In this document: piece by piece, positions 1,636-15,105 of the stretch
Position numbering within the stretch: position 1 is the first letter of the stretch
Layout of the letters: the number at the start of each line of letters is the position of its first letter
From: a plasmid
Sequence record: NZ_CP010801.1
Direction: 5' to 3' (one strand)
Length of the DNA stretch: 64,000 nt
Notes under the pieces: model-generated
Told to the model about the DNA's origin: nothing
What the model saw: only the letters and a program-made list of their open reading frames with translations
Databases searched by the model: none
Made by a program: the position numbers and the translations under genes

Positions 1636-1672
1636 CTCGACAACCAACCCTGAACCCGGCAATTCCGCCGGC
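1636..1672 (+). promoter_or_regulatory. conserved upstream element copy A (CGACAAC-N7-GAAC box + CCGGC/GCCGG hairpin)
   Basis: CTCGACAACCAACCCTGAACCC then hairpin CCGGCAATTCCGCCGG, ending ~20 nt before the ATG at 1693; one of 9 copies in the window. Confidence 0.5.
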
Positions 1673-1692
1673 ACTGAGTTGGGAGAGCGATC

Positions 1693-2199
1693 ATGCAACA
1701 ACCTGTGCAGCAATCGGCCAGTGTTCTGGCTCGCTACCGGACGCGCGGCTGGGCCCGCATCTGCGACAAGGCAGCCGAGCTCGATCCGAAATTTGCGCAA
1801 GTCCTGCGCGAATCGGCGCGGCCGGCGCAAATTGCCTACCAGAAGATCATGGGCCGGCACGAAGGCAATCCGGTGGGCGTCGAGTGCCGCGCCGTCAAAC
1901 GCGAGGCGTGGGCTTTCGTCCTGGCGGATGTCAGCTGTCCCGGTCGATTCCGCATCCAGTATTTCGACCTGGACGGGTTCTCTGGGCATTACGTCCACAA
2001 GACGCTCGAGGAGGCCGTCGAAGACATGGTGACGAGCGGCTACCGCCAGATCGACACCGGCGCTCTTGACCGCGTGGCGGCCACCGAGCGGTGGGCGCTC
2101 GGTGTCAAGCGCTCAGCAATCATGCAGCGGCACCAGTCCGGGATGATCGATTGGGCGACGGCGGTTGGTGAGCTTTCCATCCTGCAGACAAATTCCTGA
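1693..2199 (+). CDS. hypothetical protein (168 aa)
   Basis: ORF immediately 3' of the conserved element; GGGAGAG RBS 7 nt upstream of the ATG. Confidence 0.45.
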   Translation: MQQPVQQSASVLARYRTRGWARICDKAAELDPKFAQVLRESARPAQIAYQKIMGRHEGNPVGVECRAVKREAWAFVLADVSCPGRFRIQYFDLDGFSGHYVHKTLEEAVEDMVTSGYRQIDTGALDRVAATERWALGVKRSAIMQRHQSGMIDWATAVGELSILQTNS

Positions 2200-2272
2200 A
2201 GAACTGCACTGACAAGCTGCACGACTTCTGAATGAAACCGACCGTCCGCGCGCCACCAAGGCACGAGGACAT

Positions 2273-2306
2273 CTCAACAACTCTTGCGGGAAAGCACATC
2301 TTTCCC
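2273..2306 (+). promoter_or_regulatory. conserved upstream element copy B (divergent variant)
   Basis: CTCAACAACTCTTGCGGGAAAG followed by the perfect hairpin GGGAAAG-CACAT-CTTTCCC, ~45 nt upstream of the ATG at 2350. Confidence 0.4.
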
Positions 2307-2349
2307 TCCCTGGGATTGGTGTGCTCAACATGCGAATGAAGGAGCAACA

Positions 2350-3075
2350 ATGAACACCATTTCCAAGAAGGTAGAAGACCTGGTTCTCGGCAATCGCGTC
2401 GACCTCAAGTCGTGCCCGTTTCTCAATAATCACCCCATTGCCGAGAGCGAGTATGCCGTCGTGACCTACATTGAAAGGGCAGTGCCTGGATGCGTCGTCA
2501 TCGGCTATGAGGGCATCGATCACGTGGGCTACCAACTTGGCACCTCTGTCCAGGTGCGCGCACCGAAAGACGTACCCGATCCCATCGTCAAGGTTCACCC
2601 TCTCGGCAAACCGGAAGAATGGGAGGAGTGGCATATCTCCCAGAATCTGACCGATCGGTGGGGCGATCTCAACCACTACGACGCGGACAACAAGCCGCTG
2701 GACCTGCTGGCTGATGATGACGGCCTGCTCGAGCGTCTGGTCAACCAGATGTGGGGCGAATCGACCTTCGTGGTTCGCAAGGATGGCAAGTTCGGCATCC
2801 TGTTCGAGGTCGAGTTTTGCTCGCTGGAGAGCGAGGAACCGGAGAAGGAGAATTCGCCCGACTGGTATGCCACGCTCAAGCCGCACACCGAAGTCGTCAA
2901 GGCATTGCTGGAAGGCATGCATCCGCTGGCCGAGAAGTTTCCCAACGTGCAATTTGCCGTTCCCGACGAGGAAGTGATCATCAACGACCGGCCCGCCGCC
3001 TGGGCGTTTGTACCCGATGGCCTGCTGAACAAGGAACAGCGCAAAGAGCTTGGCAACGCATTGCTTGGCCTCTAG
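2350..3075 (+). CDS. hypothetical protein (241 aa)
   Basis: ORF with GAAGGAG RBS; chosen start is the first ATG after the element. The upstream part of the 2284 ORF lacks an RBS. Confidence 0.45.
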   Translation: MNTISKKVEDLVLGNRVDLKSCPFLNNHPIAESEYAVVTYIERAVPGCVVIGYEGIDHVGYQLGTSVQVRAPKDVPDPIVKVHPLGKPEEWEEWHISQNLTDRWGDLNHYDADNKPLDLLADDDGLLERLVNQMWGESTFVVRKDGKFGILFEVEFCSLESEEPEKENSPDWYATLKPHTEVVKALLEGMHPLAEKFPNVQFAVPDEEVIINDRPAAWAFVPDGLLNKEQRKELGNALLGL

Positions 3076-3087
3076 GTCCACCCCCAG

Positions 3088-3120
3088 CCCCCGCGCAGCT
3101 TTGCTGCCGGGGGTTTTTGT
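3088..3120 (+). terminator. rho-independent terminator
   Basis: CCCCCGCGCAGC-TTTG-CTGCCGGGGG followed by TTTTTGT. Confidence 0.65.
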
Positions 3121-3130
3121 ATTCCCCAGG

Positions 3131-3167
3131 CTCGACAACCACCTCCGAACCCCGGCATTCCGCCGGT
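3131..3167 (+). promoter_or_regulatory. conserved upstream element copy C
   Basis: CTCGACAACCACCTCCGAACCC + hairpin CCGGCATTCCGCCGG, then GAGGAG RBS and the ATG at 3183. Confidence 0.5.
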
Positions 3168-3182
3168 CACGAGGAGATCAAA

Positions 3183-4997
3183 ATGGTTGACGAGTTTCAG
3201 TTTTTCCCCACCCCCGCAGGCCTGGCTGCCCGCATGATCGCCAAGTTCAGCACCCACCCCTGGGGCCGCGACGCTCGCGTGCTCGAGCCCTCGGCCGGTG
3301 ACGGCGCGCTGGTGCGGGCCCTGGTCGACGCAGCAAAAGCAGAGCGCAATGCGTGGATGGTCAAGCATCACACCTACTTCCGCATGGACGACCTGCACGT
3401 CGATTTCATTGAGCTCGACATGGGCAAGCACGACGCCCTCAAATCGATCGATGACGTGCGCGGCGAGGTGATCGGCCTGGACTTCCTTCAATTCTCGGGA
3501 AGCCTGGCAGCCTACACGCACGTTCTGGCCAACCCGCCGTTCGCAGCAGGCGTGCACCACCTGCTGAAGGCCTGGGATGGCCTGTTCGATGGCGAGATCG
3601 TGTGTCTGCTCAACGCCGAAACCATCAAGAACCCGTTCTCGAAGGAGCGCCAGCGCCTCGTGCGCCTGATCGAGGCTCATGGCGACGTGGAGTTCATCCA
3701 GGATGCGTTCAAGGGCGAGGGCGTCGAGCGGGAGGCCGATGTCGAAGTGGCCATTGTCCGTCTTGCGAAGAAGGCAGACTTGCAGCGCGACATCATCGGC
3801 TCGGTGCTGGATAGCCTGGCTGAAGACTCCCTGGCCGAAACGGGGGGCGCCGGCGATGCGCATGCCATCGGCGACGATCGACAGTTGGCGATCCCTGGAG
3901 ACGTGATCGTGCGCACGGAGCGCGCGTTCAAGGCAGCTGTCACCTCCATGCGCGAATGCGTCATAGCTCAGGCGCGCGCGAGCTACGCAGCACGCCTGGT
4001 CGGCCAGACGCTGGCGCAGCGCAATGGCGAGGATAAGGGCGATCCGCAAGGCGACCTCATCCAGACTATCCGTGAAGGCATCGCCAAGGGCTATGACGAG
4101 CTCAAGGATCGGGCATGGTCTGAGGTGCTGCGTTCCACCGAGGTGTCAGCGAAGCTCTCCAGCAAGGCGCAGCAGCGTCTCGAGGCAGACTTCCAGCGCA
4201 TCAAGCGGCTGGACTTCAGTGCCTCCAACGTCTACTCGTTCCTGATCGGTCTGATCGATGCGCGGGGAGACATGCTGGTGCAAATGGCCTGCGAGGTGTT
4301 CGACGAGATCACGAGGTATCACTCGGAGAACAGGGTGTATTACGAAGGTTGGAAGAGCAACGATCGGCACCGCACGGCCGGCTGGCGCATCAAGCACACG
4401 CGATTCATCCTGCCGCACTTCAAGGCTGATTATTCTTGGAGCAAGCGTCCGTCGTACAGCATGGTGCAAAGACTGGCCGACTTCGACAAAGTCTTCGCCG
4501 CCCTGGACGGGAAGGAAGTCTCCAGCATCTATGGTCTCTCCGCCATGTTCGAGCGCGAGTGCGAGAGCTTGGCTCATGGCGAGCGCAGGTCGAGCGCGTA
4601 CTTCGACGTCCGCTGGTATCCCGGAAAGGGGACAGTGCACATCTTCCCGCGCAACCAGCAGATGATGGATCGGCTCAACCGCCTGGTCGGCCGCACGCGG
4701 GACTGGCTGCCGCCGCGCGATGAGATGGTCGCGAAGGACTTCTGGCTCGCCTACGAGCGGGCCGAGAAGTTCGACGAGGAGGTGCGCGCGGAGGCTGCGC
4801 GTATGTCCCCGGGCGTGTCGATAGGTGCTGTCACCGGCCCTGAATGGGGCGACGAGAGCAGGACCACCCGGGCCCAGCATGCAGTGGCCAGCGCGTTCAA
4901 CGCAATCGCTCGCAAGCATGGGCTGGATCCGCTTCCAGCGATCGCTTCATCCCACAAGGAGCCGGAGCAACTTCCACTGCTGGCGGTCGCAGCTTGA
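3183..4997 (+). CDS. N6-adenine DNA methyltransferase, large orphan type (604 aa)
   Basis: N-terminal FFPTP (AdoMet motif I-like) and LANPPF (motif IV, NPPF) are signatures of gamma-class N6-adenine methyltransferases. A ~400-aa C-terminal extension follows and no adjacent restriction gene is present. The start follows terminator + element + RBS, so the 2751 N-terminal extension in the ORF track is rejected. Confidence 0.65.
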   Translation: MVDEFQFFPTPAGLAARMIAKFSTHPWGRDARVLEPSAGDGALVRALVDAAKAERNAWMVKHHTYFRMDDLHVDFIELDMGKHDALKSIDDVRGEVIGLDFLQFSGSLAAYTHVLANPPFAAGVHHLLKAWDGLFDGEIVCLLNAETIKNPFSKERQRLVRLIEAHGDVEFIQDAFKGEGVEREADVEVAIVRLAKKADLQRDIIGSVLDSLAEDSLAETGGAGDAHAIGDDRQLAIPGDVIVRTERAFKAAVTSMRECVIAQARASYAARLVGQTLAQRNGEDKGDPQGDLIQTIREGIAKGYDELKDRAWSEVLRSTEVSAKLSSKAQQRLEADFQRIKRLDFSASNVYSFLIGLIDARGDMLVQMACEVFDEITRYHSENRVYYEGWKSNDRHRTAGWRIKHTRFILPHFKADYSWSKRPSYSMVQRLADFDKVFAALDGKEVSSIYGLSAMFERECESLAHGERRSSAYFDVRWYPGKGTVHIFPRNQQMMDRLNRLVGRTRDWLPPRDEMVAKDFWLAYERAEKFDEEVRAEAARMSPGVSIGAVTGPEWGDESRTTRAQHAVASAFNAIARKHGLDPLPAIASSHKEPEQLPLLAVAA

Positions 4998-5023
4998 CCA
5001 GTAGAACGTCCTTCAGACCAACC

Positions 5024-5062
5024 ACCGCCGCGCCCTACCCAGGGCCGGCGGTGTTTTTTTTG
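5024..5062 (+). terminator. rho-independent terminator
   Basis: CCGCCGCGCCCTACCCAGGGCCGGCGG hairpin followed by TGTTTTTTTT. Confidence 0.65.
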
Positions 5063-5137
5063 CCTACCTTGACGCAATAAACAACACCAATCAAAATACA
5101 AACACATGCAACGTTTGCATGATTTGGAGATAGCGAG
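5063..5137 (+). promoter_or_regulatory. AT-rich promoter region with palindromic operator-like site
   Basis: GC content drops sharply here. Inverted repeat ATGCAA-CGT-TTGCAT at 5106-5120 and GGAGATAGCGAG RBS ahead of the ATG at 5138. Confidence 0.4.
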
Positions 5138-5371
5138 ATGTACATCAACGGAATTTTCAGTCTCTCCGCGCTTGAGCGCGATCTGAACGAAGAGATTGTG
5201 CCGGCACTGAATCTCCCGCCGGATGGACCAGTTGGCACTTGGCTGGATTGGGTCGCGCAGGAGAAAGCCAATCGCCGACCGGACATTGCGTTCTACGACA
5301 TCACTGTCGACGAGATCGAGGCGCAGATCCTGGAGGAGACCGGGCAAAGCGCTTCGAACCGAGTTAACTGA
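5138..5371 (+). CDS. hypothetical protein (77 aa)
   Basis: First ORF of a same-strand gene run 5138-7508. Confidence 0.35.
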   Translation: MYINGIFSLSALERDLNEEIVPALNLPPDGPVGTWLDWVAQEKANRRPDIAFYDITVDEIEAQILEETGQSASNRVN

Positions 5372-5392
5372 ATACAACGAGGGAAATTCAAG

Positions 5393-5647
5393 ATGGGACA
5401 AAACAACCAGGGGCAGAACACCCCCTTGTTCTCCGGGACAGGTTGGGAAGCCTATTCGGAGGGCACAGACGCGGACCCCTTTATTCGCGTGTACGACGAG
5501 CTCGGCGAGGGCATGTTCCGACTGCCCAGCTTGAACTGGTCGCATGAGCAAGTTGGTTGCGTGGTGTCCGTTTATAAGCATGGACTGAGTGACGGCATCC
5601 AGCTTGGCAAAGCTTCGGAACAGAAGCGCCTGGCATCGCAAACGTAG
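5393..5647 (+). CDS. hypothetical protein (84 aa)
   Basis: ORF with GAGGGAAATTCAAG upstream of the ATG. Confidence 0.35.
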   Translation: MGQNNQGQNTPLFSGTGWEAYSEGTDADPFIRVYDELGEGMFRLPSLNWSHEQVGCVVSVYKHGLSDGIQLGKASEQKRLASQT

Positions 5648-5664
5648 GACACAGGGGAGAACAC

Positions 5665-6060
5665 TTGAACGCACGAGAGCGCCTGGTGGCCGCTGCTGAG
5701 TGGCTGGGCTGGAACGATCAAGACTTGAGCGCAGGCTTGCGTAATGCGTTTGATGGCCTGCGCCTGTATGACTACGCGCAGGCGCGTCGCGACCTCCCAG
5801 CCTTGGCTGATATGTGGCGGCCGGATGAGCGTATCGATGCGATCGGTTATGACCCCATGGCCCGCCAGTACCACGCTGCAGATACGAGCGGTGCGAACGA
5901 GGCGGCTATGGCGCTGGGAGTCGCCCGAGACCTCCTGAAATCGATCGCGTTCGTCAAGACCGAGGGCGATGCGAAGCGCCTCATCGCCGTCATTGACGAA
6001 ATCGTTGAGCGCGCCCCCGGCGCACAAAGCGCAACCGCCAGCGACGAGGTTGCCGCATAG
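5665..6060 (+). CDS. hypothetical protein (131 aa; non-ATG start)
   Basis: ORF in the same-strand run; the start codon is TTG per the ORF track, so the exact start is uncertain. Confidence 0.3.
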   Translation: MNARERLVAAAEWLGWNDQDLSAGLRNAFDGLRLYDYAQARRDLPALADMWRPDERIDAIGYDPMARQYHAADTSGANEAAMALGVARDLLKSIAFVKTEGDAKRLIAVIDEIVERAPGAQSATASDEVAA

Positions 6061-6077
6061 AGAGGGCTCGGAAAATC

Positions 6078-6647
6078 ATGTCAACGTACACGGTCACTGA
6101 ACGCTGCGGCTGTCGCATCGTCACCGGCGAGTTGCCGCTGTCAGCCATCGGCGTGCTGACGCACGGAATGAGCAGGAAGGCAGTAATGGACGCCAATCTT
6201 GCGAGGATGCTTGGCGCCACCTTCGTCGTCGGCGAGCCAGCTGATATTGACCGCCTTAAGGAAGATCCGTCGGTAGTGGCTGGAGCGCGGGATCGGGTCT
6301 CAGCCACCCACCATCACCTGTCAGATGCGGCACGAGCATGGCTCGCGACCGGTGAGCGTGGCATCAGCAGCGATGCAATGTTCGCCCGTCTCTCTGGCAG
6401 CGTCCCGCGGACCACGGCCACTCCGTCCGACACCGCTGATTTGAGGCGCTGCCGCCTTCTGCTCGAACAAGTGCCCGAGTTCCGGGCGAAATTCCCGATG
6501 ATGGCCGATCTCTCTCCGACGTGGGCCGTATTAGTCCAGCGGTGGGATGAGCTTTGCACGTTGATGGACACTGAGACGCCAGAATGGCGCAAAGGCGGTG
6601 GCATCGCCGTGAAGACCTACCATCTCATGAAAGCGATCGGGTGTTGA
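6078..6647 (+). CDS. hypothetical protein (189 aa)
   Basis: Long ORF with codon usage consistent with its neighbours. Confidence 0.4.
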   Translation: MSTYTVTERCGCRIVTGELPLSAIGVLTHGMSRKAVMDANLARMLGATFVVGEPADIDRLKEDPSVVAGARDRVSATHHHLSDAARAWLATGERGISSDAMFARLSGSVPRTTATPSDTADLRRCRLLLEQVPEFRAKFPMMADLSPTWAVLVQRWDELCTLMDTETPEWRKGGGIAVKTYHLMKAIGC

Positions 6648-6648
6648 C

Positions 6649-6975
6649 GTGCGGCGGACCATCCACCTTGTCATGGCCGATTCGTTGTACGAGGGCAGCG
6701 ATCCGGTGAAGGCGTTTGCAACGAAGCCCCAGGCAGAGGCTTTCGCGCTCAGGTGTCGAGCGTACGCCATGGCCCGACCGGAGTGCCCTGAGATCATTGC
6801 TGACACGCCCGAAAACGATGCCGAGTGGAAAAAGTACATGAAGCGCCAGCATCGGTGGCAAAGGCGCCATCCTGCCGGCGAAGACAGCGCGACGTGCAAC
6901 GATTTCAGCGTCATGCCCATCGATCTGCAGGAACCGACTGATTTCGACGGAGTCGTGGAGGACCGCGCTTCATGA
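6649..6975 (+). CDS. hypothetical protein (108 aa)
   Basis: GTG start 1 nt after the upstream stop; the 3' end overlaps the next gene by ATGA. Confidence 0.35.
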   Translation: MRRTIHLVMADSLYEGSDPVKAFATKPQAEAFALRCRAYAMARPECPEIIADTPENDAEWKKYMKRQHRWQRRHPAGEDSATCNDFSVMPIDLQEPTDFDGVVEDRAS

Positions 6976-7508
6976 AGATGGCCCGCGCTTCTGAGGCTGA
7001 CGTGGACGCTGCGCTTGAAGTGACGCGCATCCTCGATGACCTGCTCAAACGCTACATGCCGTCCAGTGGTTCGGATGAAGGGATCGTATGGTTTGACCAG
7101 GACGACCCTGACCAATGCCAAATCGCACTTGGCAGGCTACTGGACGCTGCGCGCAAGGGATCCATGTTCCGCGTGGTATTCGGCATGGCTGTCCTGCTCG
7201 ATCCGCGCAACGAACTGCTGGACCCCGATGCAGACATGCTGGCTAGACATCCGAAAATCGTTCGCGCCATGAATGCGTGTAAGACCGGCAAACCGGCAGA
7301 CGAACCTGCTCGACAACGCGCTCCCGGCCCGATCGAGGAAATCATGGCGCTGGCGGAGAAGTACGCCAACGACAAGGTAAAGATCCGTCTGGCACGCGTC
7401 ACCGAGAGTTCCGCGGCGATAGCCCGGCGGGAGACCGAGCACGAACGTTCCCGCGTCGCGCTGCTCACCGCCCTTGAAGCCGCGTTTGAGCTCGGCGCTA
7501 CCGCCTGA
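6972..7508 (+). CDS. hypothetical protein (178 aa)
   Basis: ATGA overlap with the upstream gene (translational coupling). Confidence 0.4.
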   Translation: MKMARASEADVDAALEVTRILDDLLKRYMPSSGSDEGIVWFDQDDPDQCQIALGRLLDAARKGSMFRVVFGMAVLLDPRNELLDPDADMLARHPKIVRAMNACKTGKPADEPARQRAPGPIEEIMALAEKYANDKVKIRLARVTESSAAIARRETEHERSRVALLTALEAAFELGATA

Positions 7509-7589
7509 AGCGCTCACGTCCAATCCTGTCGAGCATCGCCCGGACAAAGCGGTCGGCGTAGGGCTGGGCGCTGTCATCCTGCAACGGCA

Positions 7590-7630
7590 GAAAAAAACAA
7601 TCCCGCCAGCCGAAGCTGAGCGGGATTGTG
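7590..7630 (-). terminator. rho-independent terminator (minus strand)
   Basis: On the minus strand, CAATCCCGCTCAGCTTCGGCTGGCGGGATTG followed by T7; terminates the gene at 7634-7879. Confidence 0.65.
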
Positions 7631-7633
7631 TCG

Positions 7634-7879: not shown

Positions 7880-8057
7880 GAATGCCTCCAATACCCCCTA
7901 CGCTCGGGGGTGCAAGTTGGGAACCTCGTGGCGTAGTCCCGGTGATCAGCCAGGCGCGAGGCGATCCGCACCCTCAGAGGGAGAACTTGGATTCACTGGT
8001 TGTTGTCCAGTCAGAAGAGAAAAAAACGGGCGACTTCGCAGCCCTTGCTTGAAGGGC

Positions 8058-8102: not shown

Positions 8103-8118
8103 CGATCAGGTTGGGGGC

Positions 8119-8613: not shown

Positions 8614-8630
8614 GACGACTCCTTGAAGGG

Positions 8631-8670: not shown

Positions 8671-8733
8671 CGCGCATGAAAAAAACCGCTCCCACCCTGT
8701 TCGGGTGGTGAGCGGGTTGGGGCAAATCCCAGA

Positions 8734-9720
8734 TCAGGCGACGATCTGGTAACCGGCGATATTCGCTGCTTCGTACATCGCCATGTGCGTGTCATCTTTC
8801 GCACCCACTTCGATGTCCCTCATGCGAAGGCCTTGCGGGTAGCGTTGGATCATCTTTGCCGTTTCGGCCGCAGGGTAGGGCAACGTGCCCTCCGGTACGA
8901 ACGGCATGAGCAGCGTCGTCGCCTCGAGCACCCTTGCTTCGAGCGCGTGCTTGCGGAACGCAGCAATGCGGCTGTGGAAGGTGCCCGGGAGGTGGATTTC
9001 CCCGTCTGCTGCATCCTTCACAAACTGCGCTACAGCCGAGTAGGCGTAGCCGCGATGCACGAGCTTGCCCGGCTCGACTTCCTCATAGAGGTTGTCCGAC
9101 GCCTGAGAGATGCGCACCAGGGGTGCGAACGTCTCGGTTGCCTTCTTACGCGCGCCGTGCGGAAACAGCGAGGCCTGTGCGTCGTAGGGATAGCCAAGCC
9201 TGTCCGGCGCAGACTTGAACACGCGCCACGCCGGGATCCGCTTGGAGCGGACAATGGCGGCAAGCACGTCGAATTCCGCAGGCAACTCGATCTCGATCGT
9301 CTGCCCCTGGTTCCAGGCGCCGCGCCTGGCTTCGTCCAGCGGATCGTCTTGCGACATGGTGTTGTCGAACGCGCGCTCCTCCCCGTCATTCCAGAAGAAC
9401 GGTTTCATCGAGCGGTCCAGGCGCACTGTCGTCGTCGGACAAATGCTGGCCTGCTTCGCTGCGCGTTGCCAGCGCCGGATGTAGCTCTCGGGACGGCAGG
9501 GCCCAGAGCGCGGACGAAACAATCCGCCTTCGCAGCCGGCCGCGTGCGCAAAGATGGTCCGCAGTGCCTCGGGGCGGCGCCCGAAACCAGTGCACGACCA
9601 ATGTGGGTTGTGGGGATAGACGTTGCTTTCGTAGTGCTCTTCCCAGAGCACAAAGGCATTGGTGCGGTCCGCCAGCGGCAGGACTTCGATGTGTTGACGG
9701 GTGAAAATGGTGGCGCCCAT
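8734..9720 (-). CDS. hypothetical protein (328 aa)
   Basis: Minus ORF; start set at MGATIFT, which sits behind the conserved element and a CAGGAGAT RBS. The antisense 403-aa plus ORF is rejected. Confidence 0.45.
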   Translation of the reverse strand: MGATIFTRQHIEVLPLADRTNAFVLWEEHYESNVYPHNPHWSCTGFGRRPEALRTIFAHAAGCEGGLFRPRSGPCRPESYIRRWQRAAKQASICPTTTVRLDRSMKPFFWNDGEERAFDNTMSQDDPLDEARRGAWNQGQTIEIELPAEFDVLAAIVRSKRIPAWRVFKSAPDRLGYPYDAQASLFPHGARKKATETFAPLVRISQASDNLYEEVEPGKLVHRGYAYSAVAQFVKDAADGEIHLPGTFHSRIAAFRKHALEARVLEATTLLMPFVPEGTLPYPAAETAKMIQRYPQGLRMRDIEVGAKDDTHMAMYEAANIAGYQIVA

Positions 9721-9736
9721 GGTGATCTCCTGATGG

Positions 9737-9775
9737 TCCCGGAATGCCCGGGGGTTCAGGAGGTAGTTGTGCGGC
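9737..9775 (-). promoter_or_regulatory. conserved upstream element copy E
   Basis: Gene sense: CGCACAACTACCTCCTGAACCCC + hairpin CCCGGGCATTCCGGG. The upstream CTCCTGA is exactly complementary to the SD region TCAGGAG. Confidence 0.5.
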
Positions 9776-9824
9776 GCAGCCGAAGAAAAACCGCCCACCT
9801 GGAGATCCAGGAGGGCGGTTCGGG

Positions 9825-10199
9825 TCAAGAGCGGTGCCTGAGTAAGACATCGTCCGGCACACAGGCGCAGTGTCCCACCACATCGTCGAAGCTCAGTCGT
9901 GCACAGAAGCCCTTGATGCGCCAGCTTTCAGCCGGAAAGGAGCCAAAGACCTCGGAGTCCGGCGCGAGCCAGCGCATCGCCTGCTCAACCGTCTGAAACC
10001 GCCGGCGGCCGGCGTAACCCAGCTCCTGGTTGATCTCGAAGCCCAGCATCCTGCAACGATCCTTCGAAGGGATGCGCGTGAGGATGTCCAGCAATGGCGA
10101 TTTCGGCACGATGCCCTTCGGCAACTGGCCAGTGGACCGAAAGCGCATGTACTCGGCGGGATGCCGCATCATGCGCTGGATTTGCTTGGTGGTCGCCAT
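9825..10199 (-). CDS. hypothetical protein (124 aa)
   Basis: Start MATTKQIQR behind a GGAGG RBS; the remainder of the ORF-track ORF is an upstream extension. Confidence 0.4.
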   Translation of the reverse strand: MATTKQIQRMMRHPAEYMRFRSTGQLPKGIVPKSPLLDILTRIPSKDRCRMLGFEINQELGYAGRRRFQTVEQAMRWLAPDSEVFGSFPAESWRIKGFCARLSFDDVVGHCACVPDDVLLRHRS

Positions 10200-10200
10200 G

Positions 10201-10389
10201 TCATACCTCCTTTTTCTCGAAGGTGTCATACGGGGCGCCGACGGCATCCAGCAAGTTGCCGTGATCCACGCAGCTGCCGACGCGCTCCCGGATCGCCGCC
10301 GCAAGCTGCTGCGGTGTCACATCGCTCGCGTCTTCGGTCTGCGAATCGATTTCGAACGTAATGGCGTAAGCGTGGGTGTAGGTCGCCAT
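10201..10389 (-). CDS. hypothetical small acidic protein (62 aa)
   Basis: Small ORF (MATYTHAYAITFEID...) tightly packed between its neighbours. Confidence 0.3.
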   Translation of the reverse strand: MATYTHAYAITFEIDSQTEDASDVTPQQLAAAIRERVGSCVDHGNLLDAVGAPYDTFEKKEV

Positions 10390-10390
10390 G

Positions 10391-10633
10391 TCAGCATCCC
10401 TCCATGACCGGCAGGACCGTCTCGACCCACCAGGCACCGTTGGCGTCCAGGCGCAAGACGTGCAGGCTCGGCTTGCCATCGATCAGAATGGGAAGGCTGA
10501 TGTGGCCGCCATTGATGCTTTCGATGGTCAGGTGCACGGGGAGTCCCTGCGCGTTATCGGCGATGGCCGACATCAGCTTCACCGCTTGCTGCTGCTTAAG
10601 GCGGATCTGAATTTCGGACTTGTTGTTGCTCAT
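10391..10633 (-). CDS. hypothetical protein (80 aa)
   Basis: Start MSNNKSEIQ lies directly behind the element and an AGGAGAG RBS. Confidence 0.4.
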   Translation of the reverse strand: MSNNKSEIQIRLKQQQAVKLMSAIADNAQGLPVHLTIESINGGHISLPILIDGKPSLHVLRLDANGAWWVETVLPVMEGC

Positions 10634-10650
10634 CAATCTCTCCTGAAGGG

Positions 10651-10688
10651 CCGGCGGAATGCCGGTGTTCGGGAGTAGTTGCGTCGTA
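10651..10688 (-). promoter_or_regulatory. conserved upstream element copy F
   Basis: Gene sense: CGACGCAACTACTCCCGAACACC + hairpin CCGGCATTCCGCCGG, then TTCAGGAGAG and the ATG at 10633. Confidence 0.5.
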
Positions 10689-10694
10689 TGGCTG

Positions 10695-10738
10695 AAAGAA
10701 ATCCCCCGGCAGCGTGATGCTGCTCGGGGGAGTGGTGA
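10695..10738 (-). terminator. rho-independent terminator (minus strand)
   Basis: Minus strand: CCCCCGAGCAGCATCACGCTGCCGGGGG followed by ATTTCTTTC; lies 3' of gene 10740-11528. Confidence 0.55.
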
Positions 10739-10739
10739 A

Positions 10740-11528
10740 TCAAGCGTTCTGTGCGGAATTCGCGGGCGCCCGGCGGTTCTCTTCAGTGAAGATGACTGCA
10801 CGCTCATTCGCATGTTCCAGAAGGCCAAGCCAGCCTTCGTCTCCAGTCAGCGAACGATGCTGATCGTGCTGGCCATCGTTGCCCGAGATGTGGATCTCGA
10901 TGCAAAGCGGGTTGGCAAGCAGATCGCGCACCAGGCCCTCGTCCCAGCAGCCCGACTTGTGCGCCAGTATTTGCAGGTGCGACAGATCCAGGGCGTAAGG
11001 GATCCCGCTCTCGGCCAGCGCCGCGTATTCCGCCCAGGTGGCCACGAGATAGTGCTCGTCGCCGACCGGGTGGGGCCCGCGCGGGTACATGCCCTCGATA
11101 CCAACGTCGCAGCCCATGATGTCGGATAGGACGTCGACGTTGCGCGCCAGGTCGTACAGCGTTGCATTGCGGCGCAGTCCGGCGTGGACCGTGTATGCGC
11201 AGGCCCCCATCGCCCGGCTGACCTTGCCCAATTCGACGTAGTAATCCATGTGCCGGTTGAGCGTGCTCAGGTCTGCCAACGATGTCCACCCCGCCACGCG
11301 TGCGTTGGCGTGCAGCCGAAACCGCGTATTCGGGTAGGCAGCTGCCAGCGCCCTGGCCGATTCCACGTCCAGCGTGCCCGCGTTCTGCGGACAGATCTGA
11401 ACGTGGTCAAGCCGGATCACTCCGGCATCAGCCAGTGACTGGGCCGCCTGCATCGCCTGCGCCACCGAAAACCCGGGAAAGGCCCCGAGCGCCAGGTTGG
11501 GCGTGACTGTGCAGAGGGCGGCGCTCAT
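10740..11528 (-). CDS. xylose-isomerase-like TIM-barrel (AP endonuclease family 2 / sugar-phosphate isomerase-epimerase fold) protein
   Basis: C-terminal HISGNDGQHDQHRSLTGDEGWLG parallels the Endo IV / Xyl-isomerase-like metal-site motif H-x-NDs...D-x-H-SLGeG. A YTVHAG segment and LDLSHLQILAH (compare CLDTCHAF) are also present. Length 262 aa. Confidence 0.5.
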   Translation of the reverse strand: MSAALCTVTPNLALGAFPGFSVAQAMQAAQSLADAGVIRLDHVQICPQNAGTLDVESARALAAAYPNTRFRLHANARVAGWTSLADLSTLNRHMDYYVELGKVSRAMGACAYTVHAGLRRNATLYDLARNVDVLSDIMGCDVGIEGMYPRGPHPVGDEHYLVATWAEYAALAESGIPYALDLSHLQILAHKSGCWDEGLVRDLLANPLCIEIHISGNDGQHDQHRSLTGDEGWLGLLEHANERAVIFTEENRRAPANSAQNA

Positions 11529-12076
11529 TGTTCTGCCCCCGCGGTGGCAGCCTCCTCGACTCCGAACAACTCGTCCGGCTCATACTCCGTCGTATCCGAT
11601 TCCGTGTAGTACACGGTATGTACGAAGGACAGGAGCTTGCCGGTCTGCAGGTCAAAGTAGGCCTCGCCGCTGCCGCCATCGCCGTTTTCCCAGCCGGAGC
11701 GGTCAGTCAGCTCGATTAGGTTATTGAGGATGTGCTCTGCTGCGTCTTCAACTGACATCGTTTTCTGCGCGACAGTTGTTTGCGCTCCGTAATTGCCCGC
11801 AGCGTCAAAGGTGTAGCAGGTTGAGCAAACCGTCATCTCGCACTGCGCCTGGACGATCGCGTCAGACAGAGGGTGGAGCGCACCCTCATTACCCACGACG
11901 GTCACCTCTTCGATGCCGCCGCTGTCGCCGCCGCCCGAATAGAAGATCTTCAGTTGTGCAGCTGCCGGTTGGCCATCTTCGCCGATGACCGCGCCGGTCA
12001 GCCGACGCACCGCTTCTGCTGTCGAGAGCGCTGCGATGTTCGAGAGGATGATTTGCTTCAGTTCGGTGTTGCCCAC
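11525..12076 (-). CDS. hypothetical acidic protein (183 aa)
   Basis: GTG start 7 nt after an AAGGAG RBS (alternative TTG at 12094); ATGA overlap with the downstream TIM-barrel gene; acidic tail VEEAATAGAEQ. Confidence 0.4.
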   Translation of the reverse strand: MGNTELKQIILSNIAALSTAEAVRRLTGAVIGEDGQPAAAQLKIFYSGGGDSGGIEEVTVVGNEGALHPLSDAIVQAQCEMTVCSTCYTFDAAGNYGAQTTVAQKTMSVEDAAEHILNNLIELTDRSGWENGDGGSGEAYFDLQTGKLLSFVHTVYYTESDTTEYEPDELFGVEEAATAGAEQ

Positions 12077-12096
12077 GAAAAACTCCTTGCTCAAGT

Positions 12097-12132
12097 CCCG
12101 GGAAATCCGGGGGTTCCCAAGTAGTTGCTTTG
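12097..12132 (-). promoter_or_regulatory. conserved upstream element copy G
   Basis: Gene sense: CAAAGCAACTACTTGGGAACCCC + hairpin CCCGGATTTCCCGGG, then the AAGGAG RBS. Confidence 0.45.
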
Positions 12133-12261
12133 GGCCGAGCGTAAAAAGCGGACGCGTCGATGCTGCTCAGGGCGGATGCCCAAAATTCAAGCAGCCCAGT
12201 CGAACCCGCCTGCGGCGCGGGTCTTGCTTCTCGTGGGGGCCACTTGTTCGCCAAAACTGTG

Positions 12262-12294
12262 GATAAATATTGTTCTTTTGTTGCGCGTGTTTAT
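12262..12294 (+). promoter_or_regulatory. sigma70-type promoter candidate for dnaB
   Basis: TTGTTG ... 17 nt ... TATAAT (12289-12294) inside an AT-rich patch; very short leader before the ATG at 12305. Confidence 0.35.
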
Positions 12295-12304
12295 AATTCC
12301 GTGA

Positions 12305-13693
12305 ATGAACACATCGCGCGACTTCCAACTCGATGCATTGAAGGTTCCGCCGCATTCGGTGGAAGCCGAACAATCAGTTCTTGGCGGCCTGCTACTGGAC
12401 AACGCTGCCTGGGACCGCATTGCCGACTTCATCAATGAGCAGGACTTCTACCGGCACGACCACCGGCTGATCTTCCACAACATTGGACGGCTGATCGGGC
12501 AGGCCAAGCCGGCGGACGTCGTCACCGTCTTCGAGATGCTGCAGGCCGCAGGCAAGGCTGAGGATGTGGGCGGTCTGCCATATCTGAATGCGCTCGCTCA
12601 GAACACGCCCAGTGCGGCCAACATTCGCCGCTACGCCGAGATCGTGCGCGATCGCAGCGTCTTGCGCCGCTTGGTGACCGTGGCGGATGAGATCTCCGCC
12701 GGCGCCTTCAACCTGCAGGGGCGCGACGTGCGCCAGCTGCTGGACGAGGCCGAGACCAAGGTGTTCTCAATCGCCGAAGAGGGTTCGCGCGGGCAGAAGG
12801 GCTTCCTTGAGATCCAGCCATTGCTCACGCAGGTGGTCGAGCGAATTGACGATCTCTACCATCGCGACAGTCAGACCGACATCACGGGTGTCGCCACTGG
12901 CTTTGTCGATCTCGATCGGATGACCAGCGGCATGCAGCCGGGTGACCTCATCATCGTGGCCGGACGCCCATCCATGGGAAAAACCGCCCTGGCGCTCAAT
13001 ATCGGCGAGCACGTGGCGGTCGACCAAGGCCTGCCAGTTGCCGTGTTCTCGATGGAGATGGCGGGCACGCAGCTGGCCATGCGTATGCTGGGATCTGTCG
13101 GCCGGTTGGATCAGCACCGGCTGCGTACCGGCCGGCTGCGTGACGATGACTGGCCCCGCCTGACGCACGCCATCAGCAAAATGAGTGACGCTCAGCTGTT
13201 CATCGATGAGACCCCCGCGCTCAACCCAATGGAGTTGCGCGCGCGGGCCCGGCGCCTGGCGCGCCAGAGCGGCCAACTCGGCCTGATCATCATCGACTAC
13301 CTGCAGCTGATGTCGGGATCGTCTAATGGCGAGAACCGCGCAACTGAGATCTCGGAAATCTCCCGTTCCCTCAAGAGCCTGGCCAAGGAGCTCAACTGTC
13401 CAGTGATCGCCTTGTCGCAGCTGAACCGCAGCCTTGAGCAGCGGCCGAATAAGCGGCCGGTCATGTCGGATCTACGTGAGTCCGGGGCCATCGAGCAGGA
13501 CGCCGATGTCATCCTCTTCATCTACCGCGATCAGGTGTACAACCCGGACTCCCAGGACAAGGGCACCGCCGAAATCATCATCGGCAAACAGCGCAACGGC
13601 CCCATCGGCACCGTACGCCTCACGTTCCTGGGCGAACATACCAAGTTCGAGAACTTCGCAGGTCGGAACGCGTTCGAGGACGCGGAGTCCTGA
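12305..13693 (+). CDS. dnaB: replicative DNA helicase DnaB
   Basis: LKVPPHSVEAEQSVLGGLLLDN, NTPSAANI, Walker A GRPSMGKTALAL, IIIDYLQLM, SDLRESGAIEQDADVI and GKQRNGPIGTV match DnaB family motifs throughout; 462 aa. Confidence 0.85.
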   Translation: MNTSRDFQLDALKVPPHSVEAEQSVLGGLLLDNAAWDRIADFINEQDFYRHDHRLIFHNIGRLIGQAKPADVVTVFEMLQAAGKAEDVGGLPYLNALAQNTPSAANIRRYAEIVRDRSVLRRLVTVADEISAGAFNLQGRDVRQLLDEAETKVFSIAEEGSRGQKGFLEIQPLLTQVVERIDDLYHRDSQTDITGVATGFVDLDRMTSGMQPGDLIIVAGRPSMGKTALALNIGEHVAVDQGLPVAVFSMEMAGTQLAMRMLGSVGRLDQHRLRTGRLRDDDWPRLTHAISKMSDAQLFIDETPALNPMELRARARRLARQSGQLGLIIIDYLQLMSGSSNGENRATEISEISRSLKSLAKELNCPVIALSQLNRSLEQRPNKRPVMSDLRESGAIEQDADVILFIYRDQVYNPDSQDKGTAEIIIGKQRNGPIGTVRLTFLGEHTKFENFAGRNAFEDAES

Positions 13694-13769
13694 TTCACAG
13701 GACCCCAGAGCCGCAAGCGCGGCTCGCGCGCGCCGCGGCGGGCATTTTCGATTGACGGGAGACCCGAAA

Positions 13770-13826
13770 GAGAAAACCCGCCGGAGTCTTGCGACTCTCG
13801 GCGGGTGATGTGGTGTGCAAAATTCA
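13770..13826 (-). terminator. terminator (minus strand), one of two related copies
   Basis: Minus strand: CACCCGCCGAGAGTCGCAAGACTCCGGCGGGTTTTCTCTTTCGGG. Near-identical unit at 14508-14562. Plus-strand form is GAAAACCCGCCGG-GTCT...CGGCGGGTG-TGTGGTGT. Confidence 0.5.
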
Positions 13827-13831
13827 GCGGT

Positions 13832-14007
13832 CAGGCAATGTGCGCCGACTTGCGGTCTTCCCGCGATTCCTGGGAGCGATGCAGCGCAATCTCCCTATCC
13901 GTGCGGCGCAACTCAGCGCGGATTCCCTTGAATGCCCCGGTGAGCGGCGCGAAGTACATCCGCAAGCTGTCGCGAAACACTCGACGAACATTGATCTGGG
14001 ATTTCAT
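13832..14007 (-). CDS. hypothetical small basic protein (~58 aa)
   Basis: MKSQINVRRVFRDSLRMYFAPLTG...; its ATG overlaps the stop of the upstream gene (ATGA coupling). Confidence 0.3.
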
Positions 14008-14258
14008 TTGAACATCTCCTTGACCAGCCCAACACTCGTTCGCCCCAAATAGAGAGCGAACAGCGTCAGGTCAAGCAAAAGCATAGCATGTGCCGTCAAC
14101 TCGATGGCTTTGTGGGTAAATTCACTGACATGCAATGCAGCCACCCAGGCCGCTGCAAGGTCAAGACCCACCGCAATTCCGCCGAGCACCAGGAAAATCG
14201 TAGTCCCGAAAAGCATGTGCAGCAACTGCTCTTTGACCAATCCATTGTGATTCGTCAT
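14004..14258 (-). CDS. small membrane protein (84 aa, two predicted TM helices; holin-sized)
   Basis: MTNHNGLVKEQLLHMLFGTTIFLVLGGIAVGLDLAAAWVAALHV... behind a GGGAGGTG RBS; hydrophobic segments. Confidence 0.4.
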   Translation of the reverse strand: MTNHNGLVKEQLLHMLFGTTIFLVLGGIAVGLDLAAAWVAALHVSEFTHKAIELTAHAMLLLDLTLFALYLGRTSVGLVKEMFK

Positions 14259-14314
14259 TGTGCGTAGCACCTCCCTCTTGCCCCAATTGCCGCCCCGGGA
14301 TGGGATGGCCTCTT

Positions 14315-14336
14315 GGGTTCGCAAGTGGTTGTTGCG
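14315..14336 (-). promoter_or_regulatory. conserved upstream element copy H (box only; hairpin divergent)
   Basis: Gene sense: CGCAACAACCACTTGCGAACCC, ~55 nt upstream of the ATG at 14258. Confidence 0.4.
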
Positions 14337-14507
14337 TACGGGGAAGAGAAAAACGGCATGTCGGCCTGGGATGAGGCCATGCCAAGATCCGGCTACCCCC
14401 CCGATGATGGGCTATGGGTAATGAAAGCCGCGCCGCTTATGCGATTTGGTAATTTAGTGTCAGGCAGTTCTTGGTACGTTGACCAAGACGTCCCGCACGG
14501 TCCCGTA

Positions 14508-14562
14508 AAACGAAAACCCGCCGGCGTCTGATGACGCGAGGCGGGTGTGGTGTACAGATTTG
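14508..14562 (-). terminator. terminator (minus strand), second copy of the 13770 unit
   Basis: Minus strand: CACACCCGCCTCGCGTCATCAGACGCCGGCGGGTTTTCGTTTTAC. Confidence 0.5.
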
Positions 14563-14567
14563 CGATC

Positions 14568-14700
14568 AGTGCTTGCGGCCAAATTCCATTCCGGCCTGCC
14601 ATGCCCCCTTCAGCATGGCAATCATGCCGGCTGGGGTCTCTGTGAAGCCTTGCCAGAAGGCTTTTGATCCGATCTTGATCAGTTCGAGCGTTGTGTCCAT
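14568..14700 (-). CDS. hypothetical small protein (43 aa)
   Basis: MDTTLELIKIGSKAFWQGFTETPAGMIAMLKGAWQAGMEFGRKH with a TGGAGTG RBS; lies between a hairpin and the terminator. Confidence 0.3.
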
Positions 14701-14749
14701 GGATCACTCCAAGGGGATACGCGGGGCATCCCCGATAAATTAGGCGAGT

Positions 14750-15025
14750 TCACGCCTCGTCGAGGATGTTTTTGATTTCCTTGATAGCTTTGGCACCACT
14801 CAAAATGACCCAGCTCATGCTGACATAGAAGTCCGCACCGAAGGCAATCGCTTCCAGGGCATCCACGAACAGCAAGTAAGCGCTCGGCAAGCCGTTAGCA
14901 ATTGCGTGCCCCAGAAAGTGCAGCCCGCGCACGCCTCCCAGCATGATTGCGAAGACCACCAAGGCCCCGACACTGTCGCCAAAAAATACTAAGGCAACCC
15001 TCCAAAGTTGGTTGAATTTCTTCAT
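14750..15025 (-). CDS. small membrane protein (91 aa, 2-3 TM helices; holin-sized)
   Basis: MKKFNQLWRVALVFFGDSVGALVVFAIMLGGVRGLHFLGHAIANGLPSAYLLFV...; RBS GGGTGGAGAA. Confidence 0.45.
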   Translation of the reverse strand: MKKFNQLWRVALVFFGDSVGALVVFAIMLGGVRGLHFLGHAIANGLPSAYLLFVDALEAIAFGADFYVSMSWVILSGAKAIKEIKNILDEA

Positions 15026-15056
15026 TTCTCCACCCGTTCAAAGTTATGTTTTGTCT

Positions 15057-15105
15057 GGCATCCCCCCATGGGACGCCGATAATGGTTCGAGAGTGGTTGT
15101 CGAAC
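15057..15105 (-). promoter_or_regulatory. conserved upstream element copy I
   Basis: Gene sense: GTTCGACAACCACTCTCGAACC followed by the perfect 9-bp-arm hairpin GGCGTCCCATGGGGGGATGCC, then the RBS. Confidence 0.45.

Follow-up and report, generated by a model that had tools for sequence, protein, structure and literature searches.

The left part of a 64,000-nucleotide stretch of plasmid DNA (record NZ_CP010801.1; the whole stretch is referred to as the window) contains a short element that is repeated in front of many different genes. In the sense of the gene it consists of CAAC, seven (once eight) nucleotides, GAA(C/T), zero to two nucleotides, a GC hairpin, a Shine-Dalgarno (SD) sequence and the start codon, as seen by reading and by a regular-expression scan. 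Judged by sequence comparison, it is a real and undescribed family of cis-elements, with good comparative support for a structured leader. It is the 5′ part of a conserved intergenic cassette that separates small accessory genes in arrays on betaproteobacterial plasmids and integrative elements. What does it do? The explanation preferred here, with moderate confidence, is that the element would be a transcribed 5′ leader that occludes the ribosome-binding site (RBS), within a cassette made of a terminator plus this leader.

Copies of the element in the window

A covariance model (CM) built from 17 copies was run over the whole window with filters off. It found seven canonical matches of 32.6–45.2 bits (E 1e-7 to 2e-11), which span 831–868 (+), 1638–1675 (+), 3133–3170 (+), 8628–8666 (−), 9734–9772 (−), 10647–10684 (−) and 12093–12130 (−), and three degenerate matches of 12.9–15.7 bits at 15069–15102, 14305–14334 and 7982–8008 (all −). 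The next best match in the 64 kb scores 10.7 bits. The seven canonical copies belonged to the training set of the model and the three degenerate ones did not. All 10 copies are intergenic, lie 5′ of a gene in the sense of that gene and are confined to 0.8–15.1 kb, and the model found no comparable element between 17 and 64 kb of the window. The bare box, CGACAAC-N7-GAAC with up to two mismatches, is not enriched window-wide (25 observed vs 17.8 expected), whereas the full element stands far above background. The signal is carried by the full element.

A preliminary description of this DNA had counted nine copies. Box and hairpin are indeed present before the start codons at 1693, 3183, 8613, 9720, 10633 and 12076 (32.6–45.2 bits), the strings it quoted are right (CCGGCATTCCGCCGG before 10633, and CTCCTGA facing TCAGGAG before 9720), and the unit order of terminator, element, RBS and gene holds. 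The count has to be revised to seven canonical and three degenerate copies. The copy proposed before 2350 is dropped, being undetected by the model even at E ≤ 10 and at best a remnant, and copies before 886 and 7879 had been overlooked. Before 14258 and 15025 the box is kept, but the hairpins differ (15.1 and 15.7 bits) and the leaders measure 73–74 nucleotides instead of 15–25. Nor is the distance between the half-sites a constant 11 bp: most Ralstonia copies have N7 between them, the 9720 copy has N8, and many relatives have N6. The copies are as follows.

834–885 (+): canonical copy before gene 886–1575, overlooked previously; box 834–848, CAACCAATGCTGAAC; CM 32.8 bits
849–865 (+): hairpin of the 834 copy, GCTGGC/GCTGGC with two G·U pairs
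1641–1692 (+): canonical copy before gene 1693–2199; box 1641–1655; hairpin 1656–1671, CCGGC/GCCGG; CM 38.0 bits
2278–2349 (+): doubtful remnant before gene 2350–3075; CAAC at 2278, N8, GAAA, a different hairpin at 2288–2306; no terminator 5′ of it; no CM match at E ≤ 10
3136–3182 (+): canonical copy before the DUF4942 gene 3183–4997; box 3136–3150, CAACCACCTCCGAAC; hairpin 3152–3166; CM 45.2 bits
7880–8005 (−): degenerate copy before orphan open reading frame (ORF) 7634–7879, overlooked previously; box 7991–8005, CAACAACCAGTGAAT; 126-nucleotide leader; CM 12.9 bits, E 0.065
8614–8663 (−): canonical copy before gene 8119–8613; box 8649–8663; hairpin 8632–8647; ACTCC/GGAGT and GAA/TTC pairing in the predicted fold; CM 42.0 bits
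9721–9769 (−): canonical copy (N8) before gene 8734–9720; box 9754–9769; hairpin 9738–9752, CCCGG/CCGGG; CTCCTGA pairs with TCAGGAG; CM 32.6 bits
10634–10681 (−): canonical copy before the three-gene unit 9825–10633; box 10667–10681; hairpin 10651–10665; CM 42.7 bits
12077–12127 (−): canonical copy before the DUF6878 gene 11525–12076 (GTG start), divergent from dnaB; box 12113–12127; hairpin 12097–12111; CM 43.7 bits
14259–14331 (−): degenerate copy before gene 14004–14258; box 14317–14331 kept, downstream structure different; CM 15.1 bits, E 0.015
15026–15099 (−): degenerate copy before gene 14750–15025; box 15085–15099 kept, hairpin displaced to 15057–15077; CM 15.7 bits, E 0.0098

The orphan ORF at 7634–7879 encodes 81 amino acids, has the look of a helix-turn-helix (HTH) protein and has no homologue outside this plasmid lineage. 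Its 126-nucleotide leader is 96% identical in L141, a roughly 10% diverged relative of the same plasmid region, and this is above the identity of most nearby coding DNA. The interval 7634–8008 (−) may be a regulatory RNA or a small regulator.

Relatives on other mobile elements

Two more canonical copies lie on the same plasmid, within 3 kb 5′ of the window (L006, positions 7113 and 8489). Beyond this plasmid, related islands were gathered starting from the DUF3150 gene that stands beside the copies in locus L104, and the covariance model finds 2–13 copies per related island. The element-bearing islands include a Hydrogenophilales-type integrative element (L145–147), a plasmid with RepA and ParAB (L148/149), an NCBI contig (L150) and an element with a type IVb pilus (L152/153). 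In total there are 44 distinct copies, spread across several unrelated betaproteobacterial integrative elements and plasmids. The later islands have DUF4942 and AAA_5 domains in common with the Ralstonia region. Orthologous DUF4942 genes on other plasmids carry different repeated leaders, each specific to its plasmid, and therefore the leader belongs to the mobile element and not to the gene.

Is the element more widely dispersed? A strict pattern scan of one genome per species returned at least 120 stretches. Among the matches listed, about 117 are single chance matches in coding DNA of GC-rich genomes and three are genuine loci, all of them mobile-element-like and from Betaproteobacteria metagenome bins. 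Repetitive extragenic palindromic (REP) sequences and bacterial interspersed mosaic elements (BIME) occur in hundreds of chromosomal copies that are unlinked to gene starts. A generic spread of this kind, which the preliminary description had considered, is absent among the matches listed, and the window copies are tied to gene starts in the gene sense and confined to the interval given above, which speaks against a REP/BIME element. A scan of phage contigs gave chance matches only, and a 49-mer BLAST search of PLSDB gave nothing meaningful, the single match being to unannotated DNA of an Escherichia coli IncHI2 plasmid. Searching window positions 1–20000 together with L001 and L002 (two related plasmids, discussed below) against Rfam 15 at E ≤ 5 produced unrelated sub-threshold matches only, with nothing at or near a gathering score (ncS54, 26 bits against a gathering score of 43; Mu-gpT-DE, 18 against 49). 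This agrees with the earlier impression that the motif had not been described.

Conservation of the hairpin and the box

What is conserved in the hairpin is its structure and not its sequence. Among 23 distinct sequences, 91% of the stem cells are paired and four of the five pairs have changed on both sides. The covariation score is 0.45, compared with 0.14 after shuffling; none of 500 shuffles scores as high, and slid controls give 0.00–0.16. A set of 30 distinct sequences from the further loci L145–L153 behaves in the same way, with 93% of cells paired, all five pairs changed on both sides (28 cells) and once again none of 500 shuffles as high. In this set the copies of L145–147 repeat training sequences from L104, while those of L148, L150 and L152 are new. 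At least seven stem sequences occur, namely CCGGC/GCCGG, CCAGC/GCTGG, CTCCC/GGGAG, CTCGC/GCGAG, CCTGC/GCAGG, CCGGT/ACCGG and CGCC/GGCG.

The two parts of the box are a different matter, CAAC and GAA being nearly invariant across copies. Six orthologous elements were compared by hand from alignments between the window and its diverged relative L141. No CAAC position has changed (0/24), nor has any stem position (0/50), and only one of 24 positions in GAAY differs. The changes fall elsewhere: six of 43 positions in N7, with two of these changes keeping the pairing as U·G, and three of 27 in the loop. For example, the 8614–8663 copy has three changes in N7 and two in the loop and none in CAAC, GAAT or the stem. 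The copy with its box at 12127 has an identical 36-nucleotide core in L141, whereas the 15 nucleotides before its CAAC contain nine substitutions. With one change in 98 positions between them, CAAC, GAA and the stem are under purifying selection. The preliminary description had asked whether homologous islands conserve the element, and in the diverged L141 it is conserved.

Predicted pairing with the Shine-Dalgarno region

One clue to function is the composition of the nucleotides between CAAC and GAAC. In minimum free energy folds these pyrimidine-rich nucleotides, often together with GAA, lie opposite the (UUC)-SD region, and the outer helix that results encloses the GC hairpin, by inspection, in most of 38 copies. 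Is this anything more than the complementarity expected between a C-rich and a G-rich tract? Pairing of a box with its own SD region is worth −7.9 kcal/mol, compared with −6.4 kcal/mol for cross pairs, a residual of −1.5 (permutation p = 1e-5). Expressed as complementarity, the own-versus-cross difference has z = −4.9, or −4.7 when only Watson-Crick pairs are scored. With 10–15 copies, the same comparison gave p = 0.14 and 0.06, indistinguishable from generic CTCC-GGAG complementarity. Unusual RBS regions have matching boxes: GGATGAATG goes with ATTCATTC (CAATTCATTCTGAAC), GAGAAAGAG is matched by CTCTCTC, and CGCAAGGAG (CGCAAGG) is matched by CCCTTGCG. The predicted probability that the SD is unpaired is 0.35 in the native leader, rising to 0.44 when N7 is shuffled (p = 0.015) and to 0.62 when the leader starts 3′ of the hairpin (p = 1e-4). 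The preliminary description had pointed to an anti-SD in several boxes, and over 38 copies this idea stands as copy-specific complementarity. Its suggestion of an RNA structure in the 5′ untranslated region (UTR) gains support from hairpin covariation, copy-specific SD complementarity and the lower predicted accessibility of the SD.

How might such a leader act? We infer that the box is transcribed and that the leader folds into a two-tier stem-loop. The outer helix would be formed by the anti-SD with the SD and the inner helix by the GC hairpin, with an internal loop of AACC on one side and AC on the other. Such a fold would cover the RBS, so that translation of every cassette gene would be held down. 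The mRNA may also be protected by having a stable hairpin close to its 5′ end. CAAC and GAAC(C), together with the loop, could then be the surface recognised by whatever factor or signal opens all of the leaders together, perhaps a protein, an RNA or a physical cue. The cassette would seem to have spread among the accessory-gene arrays of betaproteobacterial mobile elements.

Several observations do not fit this RBS-occluding leader easily. In the predicted fold at least four copies (W834, M996, a4102 and a11076) leave the SD open. The box lies 73–126 nucleotides from the start codon in the three degenerate window copies and in L006 7113, which means that it persists without a nearby SD. Chimeric leaders made from window and L141 sequences fold as well as native ones, so that no compensatory signal is seen between two sequences this close. 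On the antisense strand a box prefers its own SD region almost as clearly (z = −4.4), and complementarity therefore does not tell the strand. In addition, a comparison of fold stability that was meant to show an asymmetry of G·U pairs went the other way, with the antisense folds more stable by 2.7 kcal/mol on average. This is probably a composition effect, because C opposite A is common (a C-rich box facing an A-rich SD region) and becomes G·U on the other strand, although it gives no support for a sense RNA either. A sense RNA is nevertheless favoured, because the partner of the box is the gene's own RBS and because the stems include several sense G·U pairs. The module has no recognisable promoter, and an apparently strong terminator lies 22–23 nucleotides 5′ of nearly every box (see below). 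Invariance of CAAC and GAAC(C) is not explained by base pairing. Finally, the spacing between them is nearly uniform within each mobile element (N7 in Ralstonia, N6 in L145), as would also suit a DNA-binding protein that measures distance.

A second reading is that CAAC-N6-8-GAAC is a DNA operator, with two half-sites that would bind a regulator encoded on the mobile element (e.g., a repressor of the ribbon-helix-helix or small HTH type). Such a protein would silence all accessory or establishment genes after the mobile element has settled in its host, following the logic of Reg576 (p576) or ArdK (IncN, IncW), and the hairpin would be a separate feature of the 5′ UTR. Two invariant tetramers about one helical turn apart do stand 5′ of many unrelated genes. 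Purifying selection acts on these half-sites, whereas the spacer drifts in sequence; its length hardly varies inside a given element but differs from one element to another, and even copies without the canonical hairpin have kept the box. There is also a precedent in the dual TTATCCC heptamer operator before four establishment genes (PMC6294495). However, the spacing varies between N6, N7 and N8, even inside one element (the 9720 copy; L145 8271), and the spacer is not neutral, since it tracks the SD region of each gene. Pfam and PHROGs searches of the small ORFs, over the part of the approximately 190 kb plasmid that was read, brought up no candidate regulator. The loci L104, L079 and L056 have no protein in common with the Ralstonia region at E < 1e-3 in the parts sampled by tblastn, and a search there for a shared regulator came back empty. 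Nor is there a visible promoter for such a site to control. The preliminary description had listed a repeated operator among its readings; variable spacing and the tracking of the SD weaken it, and it is retained here as an unlikely rival. A bipartite recognition site with a spacer of 6–8 nucleotides might also call to mind Type I restriction, but GAAC contains no T, hence no adenine on the bottom strand.

Terminators and transcription of the cassette

An intrinsic terminator precedes nearly every copy at a fixed distance. In the window these are found at the following positions.

787–820 (+): intrinsic terminator, GC stem and T8, ending 13 nucleotides before box 834
1593–1627 (+): intrinsic terminator before box 1641
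3088–3123 (+): intrinsic terminator before box 3136
8020–8059 (−): terminator hairpin and T7 before box 8005
8679–8715 (−): intrinsic terminator before box 8663
9783–9818 (−): intrinsic terminator before box 9769
10695–10730 (−): intrinsic terminator before box 10681
14344–14383 (−): terminator hairpin and T-run before box 14331

A double hairpin that ends in a T-run (8020–8113, −) has a sub-threshold match to the Burkholderia small RNA ncS54 (26.4 bits, gathering score 43, E 0.026).

Across the 44 copies a constant 22–23 nucleotides separate the terminator stem from CAAC (e.g., window 3113–3135). The T-tract occupies −22 to −18 relative to CAAC, with T at −18 in 98% of the copies, and the 13-nucleotide spacer between T-tract and CAAC is constant in length and variable in sequence. 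This geometry is kept also in the array-head copies of divergent arrays, where there is no upstream gene. The order within the cassette is intrinsic terminator, T-tract, 13-nucleotide spacer, CAAC, 6–8 pyrimidine-rich nucleotides, GAAC, GC hairpin (a stem of 4–6 bp and a loop that is usually of five nucleotides, R-N-N-U-Y), a short A/C-rich spacer, SD and start codon. Rigid spacing between terminator and box without a promoter poses a concrete puzzle. How are genes that are flanked by terminators transcribed?

A sigma-70 promoter has TTGACA-like and TATAAT-like hexamers 16–18 bp apart, with A at −11 and T at −7. A sigma-70 consensus scan found no such site at any element, while it detected ordinary promoters at 5069–5097 and 16397. 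A position weight matrix scan of 20 copies gave no consistent placement of −35 and −10, and a column profile of the 44 copies from −50 to +4 shows no conserved −10 or −35, only the T-tract and CAAC. By all three approaches, the element does not belong with sigma-70 promoters. One model, in which xxGACA is the −35 and the hairpin loop contains the −10, was rejected. The TTG positions vary, the loops, which are the sole place for a −10, drift freely (CAATTT in the window has become CACTTC in L141, for example), and some loops lack the A. Sigma-54 promoters have an invariant GG and GC exactly 10 bp apart (TGGCAC-N5-TTGC). By inspection, GG precedes CAAC in some copies only, the second element is GAA and not GC, and the spacing is N6–N8. 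Promoters of the extracytoplasmic function (ECF), sigma-E and sigma-32 types have the wrong spacing and would need a −10 that is not conserved; with ECF-type spacing the transcription start would fall inside the SD. We know of no RNA polymerase type, sigma-54 aside, that uses two tetramers about 7 bp apart. The promoter reading of the preliminary description is thus without measurable support.

What if the promoter were of an unusual kind? The box would then be the core read by a dedicated sigma factor, activator or polymerase, and each terminator-flanked gene would be autonomous, in the manner of a moron. Terminators bracket every unit, which seems to need a start of its own. The box is the sole conserved linear sequence of the module, and the rigid 17–18 bp from T-tract to CAAC recalls the spacing of −35 and −10. 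Moreover, canonical sigma-70 promoters exist elsewhere on the plasmid (5069–5097), so the element-bearing genes look like a separate class. We rate this as slightly less probable than the operator. Besides the lack of a sigma-70 match, GG-N10-GC is absent from most copies and incompatible with N6–N8, and the downstream positions of an ECF-type −10 are unconserved. With the box as a −35, the start point would fall inside the SD or beyond it. Hairpin covariation and the complementarity of N7 with the SD would be left without explanation, and neither the 74 kb examined nor the relatives showed a gene for a sigma factor or polymerase.

There is one place where an ordinary promoter can be proposed. 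In L145, at 8195–8307, two divergent array heads are about 40 nucleotides apart around a GAATTC centre. By inspection, TTGCCT (the reverse complement of one box)-N17-AATTCT is a plausible sigma-70 promoter for the other array, with a start that would lie 5′ of the box. This is a single case.

Transcripts of the internal units could come from array-head promoters, by read-through of the terminators, or they could arise by processing or by unusual initiation. Taken as the whole explanation, read-through and processing would make the arrays long operons punctuated by terminators, with the leader RNA serving as an antiterminator (like nut or put) or as the mark of an endonuclease site. Cleavage would yield stable monocistronic mRNAs, with a GC hairpin at the start and a terminator hairpin at the end. 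The absence of an internal promoter from the module agrees with this. So do the arrays that diverge from a single short region in L145 and L152, the fixed 22–23 nucleotides from terminator stem to CAAC with T at −18 in nearly all copies, and the resemblance of linear box plus hairpin to boxA/boxB. However, processive antitermination needs one loading site per operon and not one per gene, and the element lies 3′ of the terminator, not 5′. There is no similarity to boxA, no Rfam match, and no NusG/RfaH-like or N/Q-like gene was seen. On its own we consider this improbable, somewhat more so than an unusual promoter. It is partly compatible with the leader explanation, which it does not exclude.

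Possible roles in DNA and recombination

Perhaps the imperfect inverted repeat acts at the level of DNA, either as a cruciform or in the single strand that is present during transfer. It might be a priming site, a single-strand promoter, or a patch of homology that shuffles cassettes like the promoter-early stem-loop (PeSL) of T4-type phages. The antisense strand shows complementarity just as good and folds more stably, and genes for a primase and DnaB are nearby. The whole module of about 90 nucleotides, similar terminators included, recurs between unrelated genes in unrelated elements, which indicates spread by recombination. A DNA role is still the least probable of the four alternatives: copies stand on both strands in convergent or divergent arrays, so that a function specific to the transferred strand cannot serve all of them, Frpo/ssi signals are much larger than these hairpins, the outer arm coincides with the SD of the gene itself and so points to mRNA, and cassette shuffling accounts for the spread and not for the constraint on CAAC, GAA and the stem.

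Other repeated leaders and a possible wider class

Arrays of small genes on other plasmids have repeated leaders of their own. On Polaromonas JS666 plasmid 1 (L001, about 6400–18400) and a Delftia acidovorans plasmid (L144, about 1850–12000), some 20 small genes share another one. Its order is a terminator T-run, (T/A)AACC directly after it, a GC hairpin, a segment complementary to the hairpin loop or 5′ arm, and a CTCC - A-rich - GGAG hairpin over the SD. The complementary segment could form a pseudoknot or an alternative pairing, and the leader has no Rfam match. This leader, built like a switch, has the look of another undescribed family. On a Burkholderia contaminans plasmid (L002, about 14900–26500), a leader of roughly 110 nucleotides is common to seven genes. 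It comprises a hairpin, CCCGATG, TTCTCTCC, GTTTATCAAC, a GCCC hairpin, AAYAC and TGGAGAGAA, and TTCTCTCC is complementary to GGAGAGAA, the SD. These other repeated leaders on related plasmids likewise pair a CTCC-type tract with the SD, which suggests that CTCC-SD pairing is a general habit of such gene arrays.

A bolder proposal, which is tentative and in our estimation rather doubtful, is that the element represents an unrecognised class of mobile-element leaders. A single factor from the host or the element, or else a physical cue, would act on one surface common to all of these RNAs, made up of the CAAC tail, the AACC/AC internal loop and the R-N-N-U-Y loop, and would in this way switch on translation across a whole array of otherwise unrelated accessory or anti-defence genes at once. 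The geometry from terminator to box would couple termination to expression of the next unit. If so, the leaders of the Comamonadaceae and Burkholderia plasmids would be parallel solutions to a shared problem. Anti-restriction and further establishment functions are turning up in the arrays of small, uncharacterised genes that plasmids and integrative elements carry. A shared leader offers a way to define a regulon computationally, a translational switch that can be tested, and a marker for such islands in metagenomes.

Plasmid context

The window is part of a Ralstonia plasmid of about 190 kb (R. pickettii, R. mannitolilytica, R. insidiosa), and several of its proteins are annotated as plasmid-borne. 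Its left 20 kb consists of small genes that are mostly without annotation. Pfam identifies a DUF4942 methyltransferase-like protein, a DUF6878 protein, the DnaB helicase, an SLT transglycosylase and KfrA, and together with PHROGs it is silent for the small ORFs of the element region. The remainder contains efflux cargo, a Tn3-family transposase and an integrase. No tRNA genes were found in the window. A sharp boundary of similarity lies at 18643. From there onward (KfrA gene, 18890–19933) the sequence is 99–100% identical to other Ralstonia plasmids in PLSDB, whereas 1–18642, dnaB excepted, has no match in that database.

A few other features of the region deserve mention. Upstream of dnaB (start 12305), within 12235–12300, a 46-nucleotide AT-rich block is 100% identical in the diverged L141 and includes a perfect DnaA box, TTATCCACA, at 12258–12266 (−). 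This could mean DnaA control of the plasmid dnaB, or it could be part of an origin. Between the last element-bearing gene and the lipoprotein gene at 15732–16295 there are about 600 nucleotides (15100–15740) of GC-rich, non-coding DNA with repeated hairpins of the GCCCTTCGGGCGG type. Two metagenome variants of the plasmid (L004 and L008, 10808–12119, corresponding to about 1693–4997 of the window) have a deletion of about 2 kb, which joins the region of a truncated 168-amino-acid gene to the C-terminal 290 amino acids of the DUF4942 gene. Its end points are intragenic and not at elements.

Comparison with known systems

Some resemblances turn out to be superficial. In integrons, attC sites flank an imperfect palindrome with RYYYAAC and GTTRRRY core sites, 3′ of each cassette and in one orientation, with intI nearby. 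Here there is no GTTRRRY partner, the cassettes occur in both orientations, and the sole integrase of the window (55503–57224) is a DUF3701 tyrosine recombinase 40 kb away. The BisC box of ICEclc, a 15-nucleotide motif in transfer-competence promoters that the ParB-like pair BisC/BisD activates, is bipartite with a periodicity of about 11–12 nucleotides and stands before many genes of that mobile element (PMC9286271 S3 Fig; PMC12409273). Its first half, GGTTYC, resembles the reverse complement of GAACC. However, the opposite orientation would be needed, the second half (TTGCA or GACGC) does not match GTTG, and distances to the start codon in ICEclc are mostly 110–270 nucleotides. Only one half matches, no ParB-like domain was found in the Pfam-scanned proteins, and the similarity is judged coincidental. 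Frpo/ssi single-strand promoters are hairpins of about 100–300 nucleotides that recreate −35 and −10 boxes and serve genes that are all on the transferred strand (PMC11541004). The element has stems of 4–6 bp, no −35/−10 boxes and genes on both strands, and it is not of this type. Like lambda nut (boxA plus boxB), it places a linear box, a short spacer and a small hairpin with a five-nucleotide loop in the leader RNA of a mobile element. Unlike nut, it has no similarity to boxA and occurs in many copies per operon, each of them 3′ of a terminator, and no N-like protein was seen.

In architecture the nearest relative is PeSL. These cassettes, reportedly described in T4-type phages by Arbiol and colleagues in 2010, are said to combine a terminator stem-loop with a sigma-70 early promoter. 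What the two have in common is a regulatory module of some 50–90 nucleotides, with a terminator stem-loop inside it, that is found repeatedly between small novel ORFs and seems suited to the shuffling of genes by recombination. The differences are that PeSL has a clear sigma-70 early promoter and no leader pairing with the SD, and that the host and the type of mobile element are not the same.

In logic the element recalls the regulons of establishment genes. CUP elements of IncN plasmids and ArdK sites are short motifs repeated before small establishment or anti-restriction type genes of conjugative elements. On plasmid p576, dual TTATCCC heptamers recognised by Reg576 stand before four establishment genes (PMC6294495). 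Here too, a short conserved motif is repeated before many small genes and would define a regulon specific to the mobile element. However, the Reg576, CUP and ArdK sites sit in recognisable sigma-70 or sigma-A promoters and bind an identified repressor, whereas here no promoter was seen, no regulator turned up in the part of the plasmid that was read, and the spacer of the box changes together with the SD.

In kind, the closest systems are leaders that sequester the SD and are reused within one genome. In ROSE and fourU thermometers, and in translational operator hairpins, a short leader hairpin pairs a pyrimidine tract with the SD; the design is reused before unrelated genes and needs no ligand domain. 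The predicted leader of the element does the same, pairing a pyrimidine tract with the SD before several unrelated genes, and an SD complement kept by covariation in the same leader, as is expected of this kind of regulation, was found over 38 copies (p = 1e-5). Unlike ROSE and fourU, to which it has no sequence or model similarity in Rfam, the element has two invariant tetramers (CAAC and GAAC), a capped inner hairpin and a semi-conserved loop, features that thermometers can do without, and it is borne by mobile elements. It is a member of none of these groups. It is closest to ROSE and fourU in kind, to Reg576 and the CUP/ArdK regulons in logic and to PeSL in architecture, and although the module is undescribed, as a form of gene control it is not exotic.

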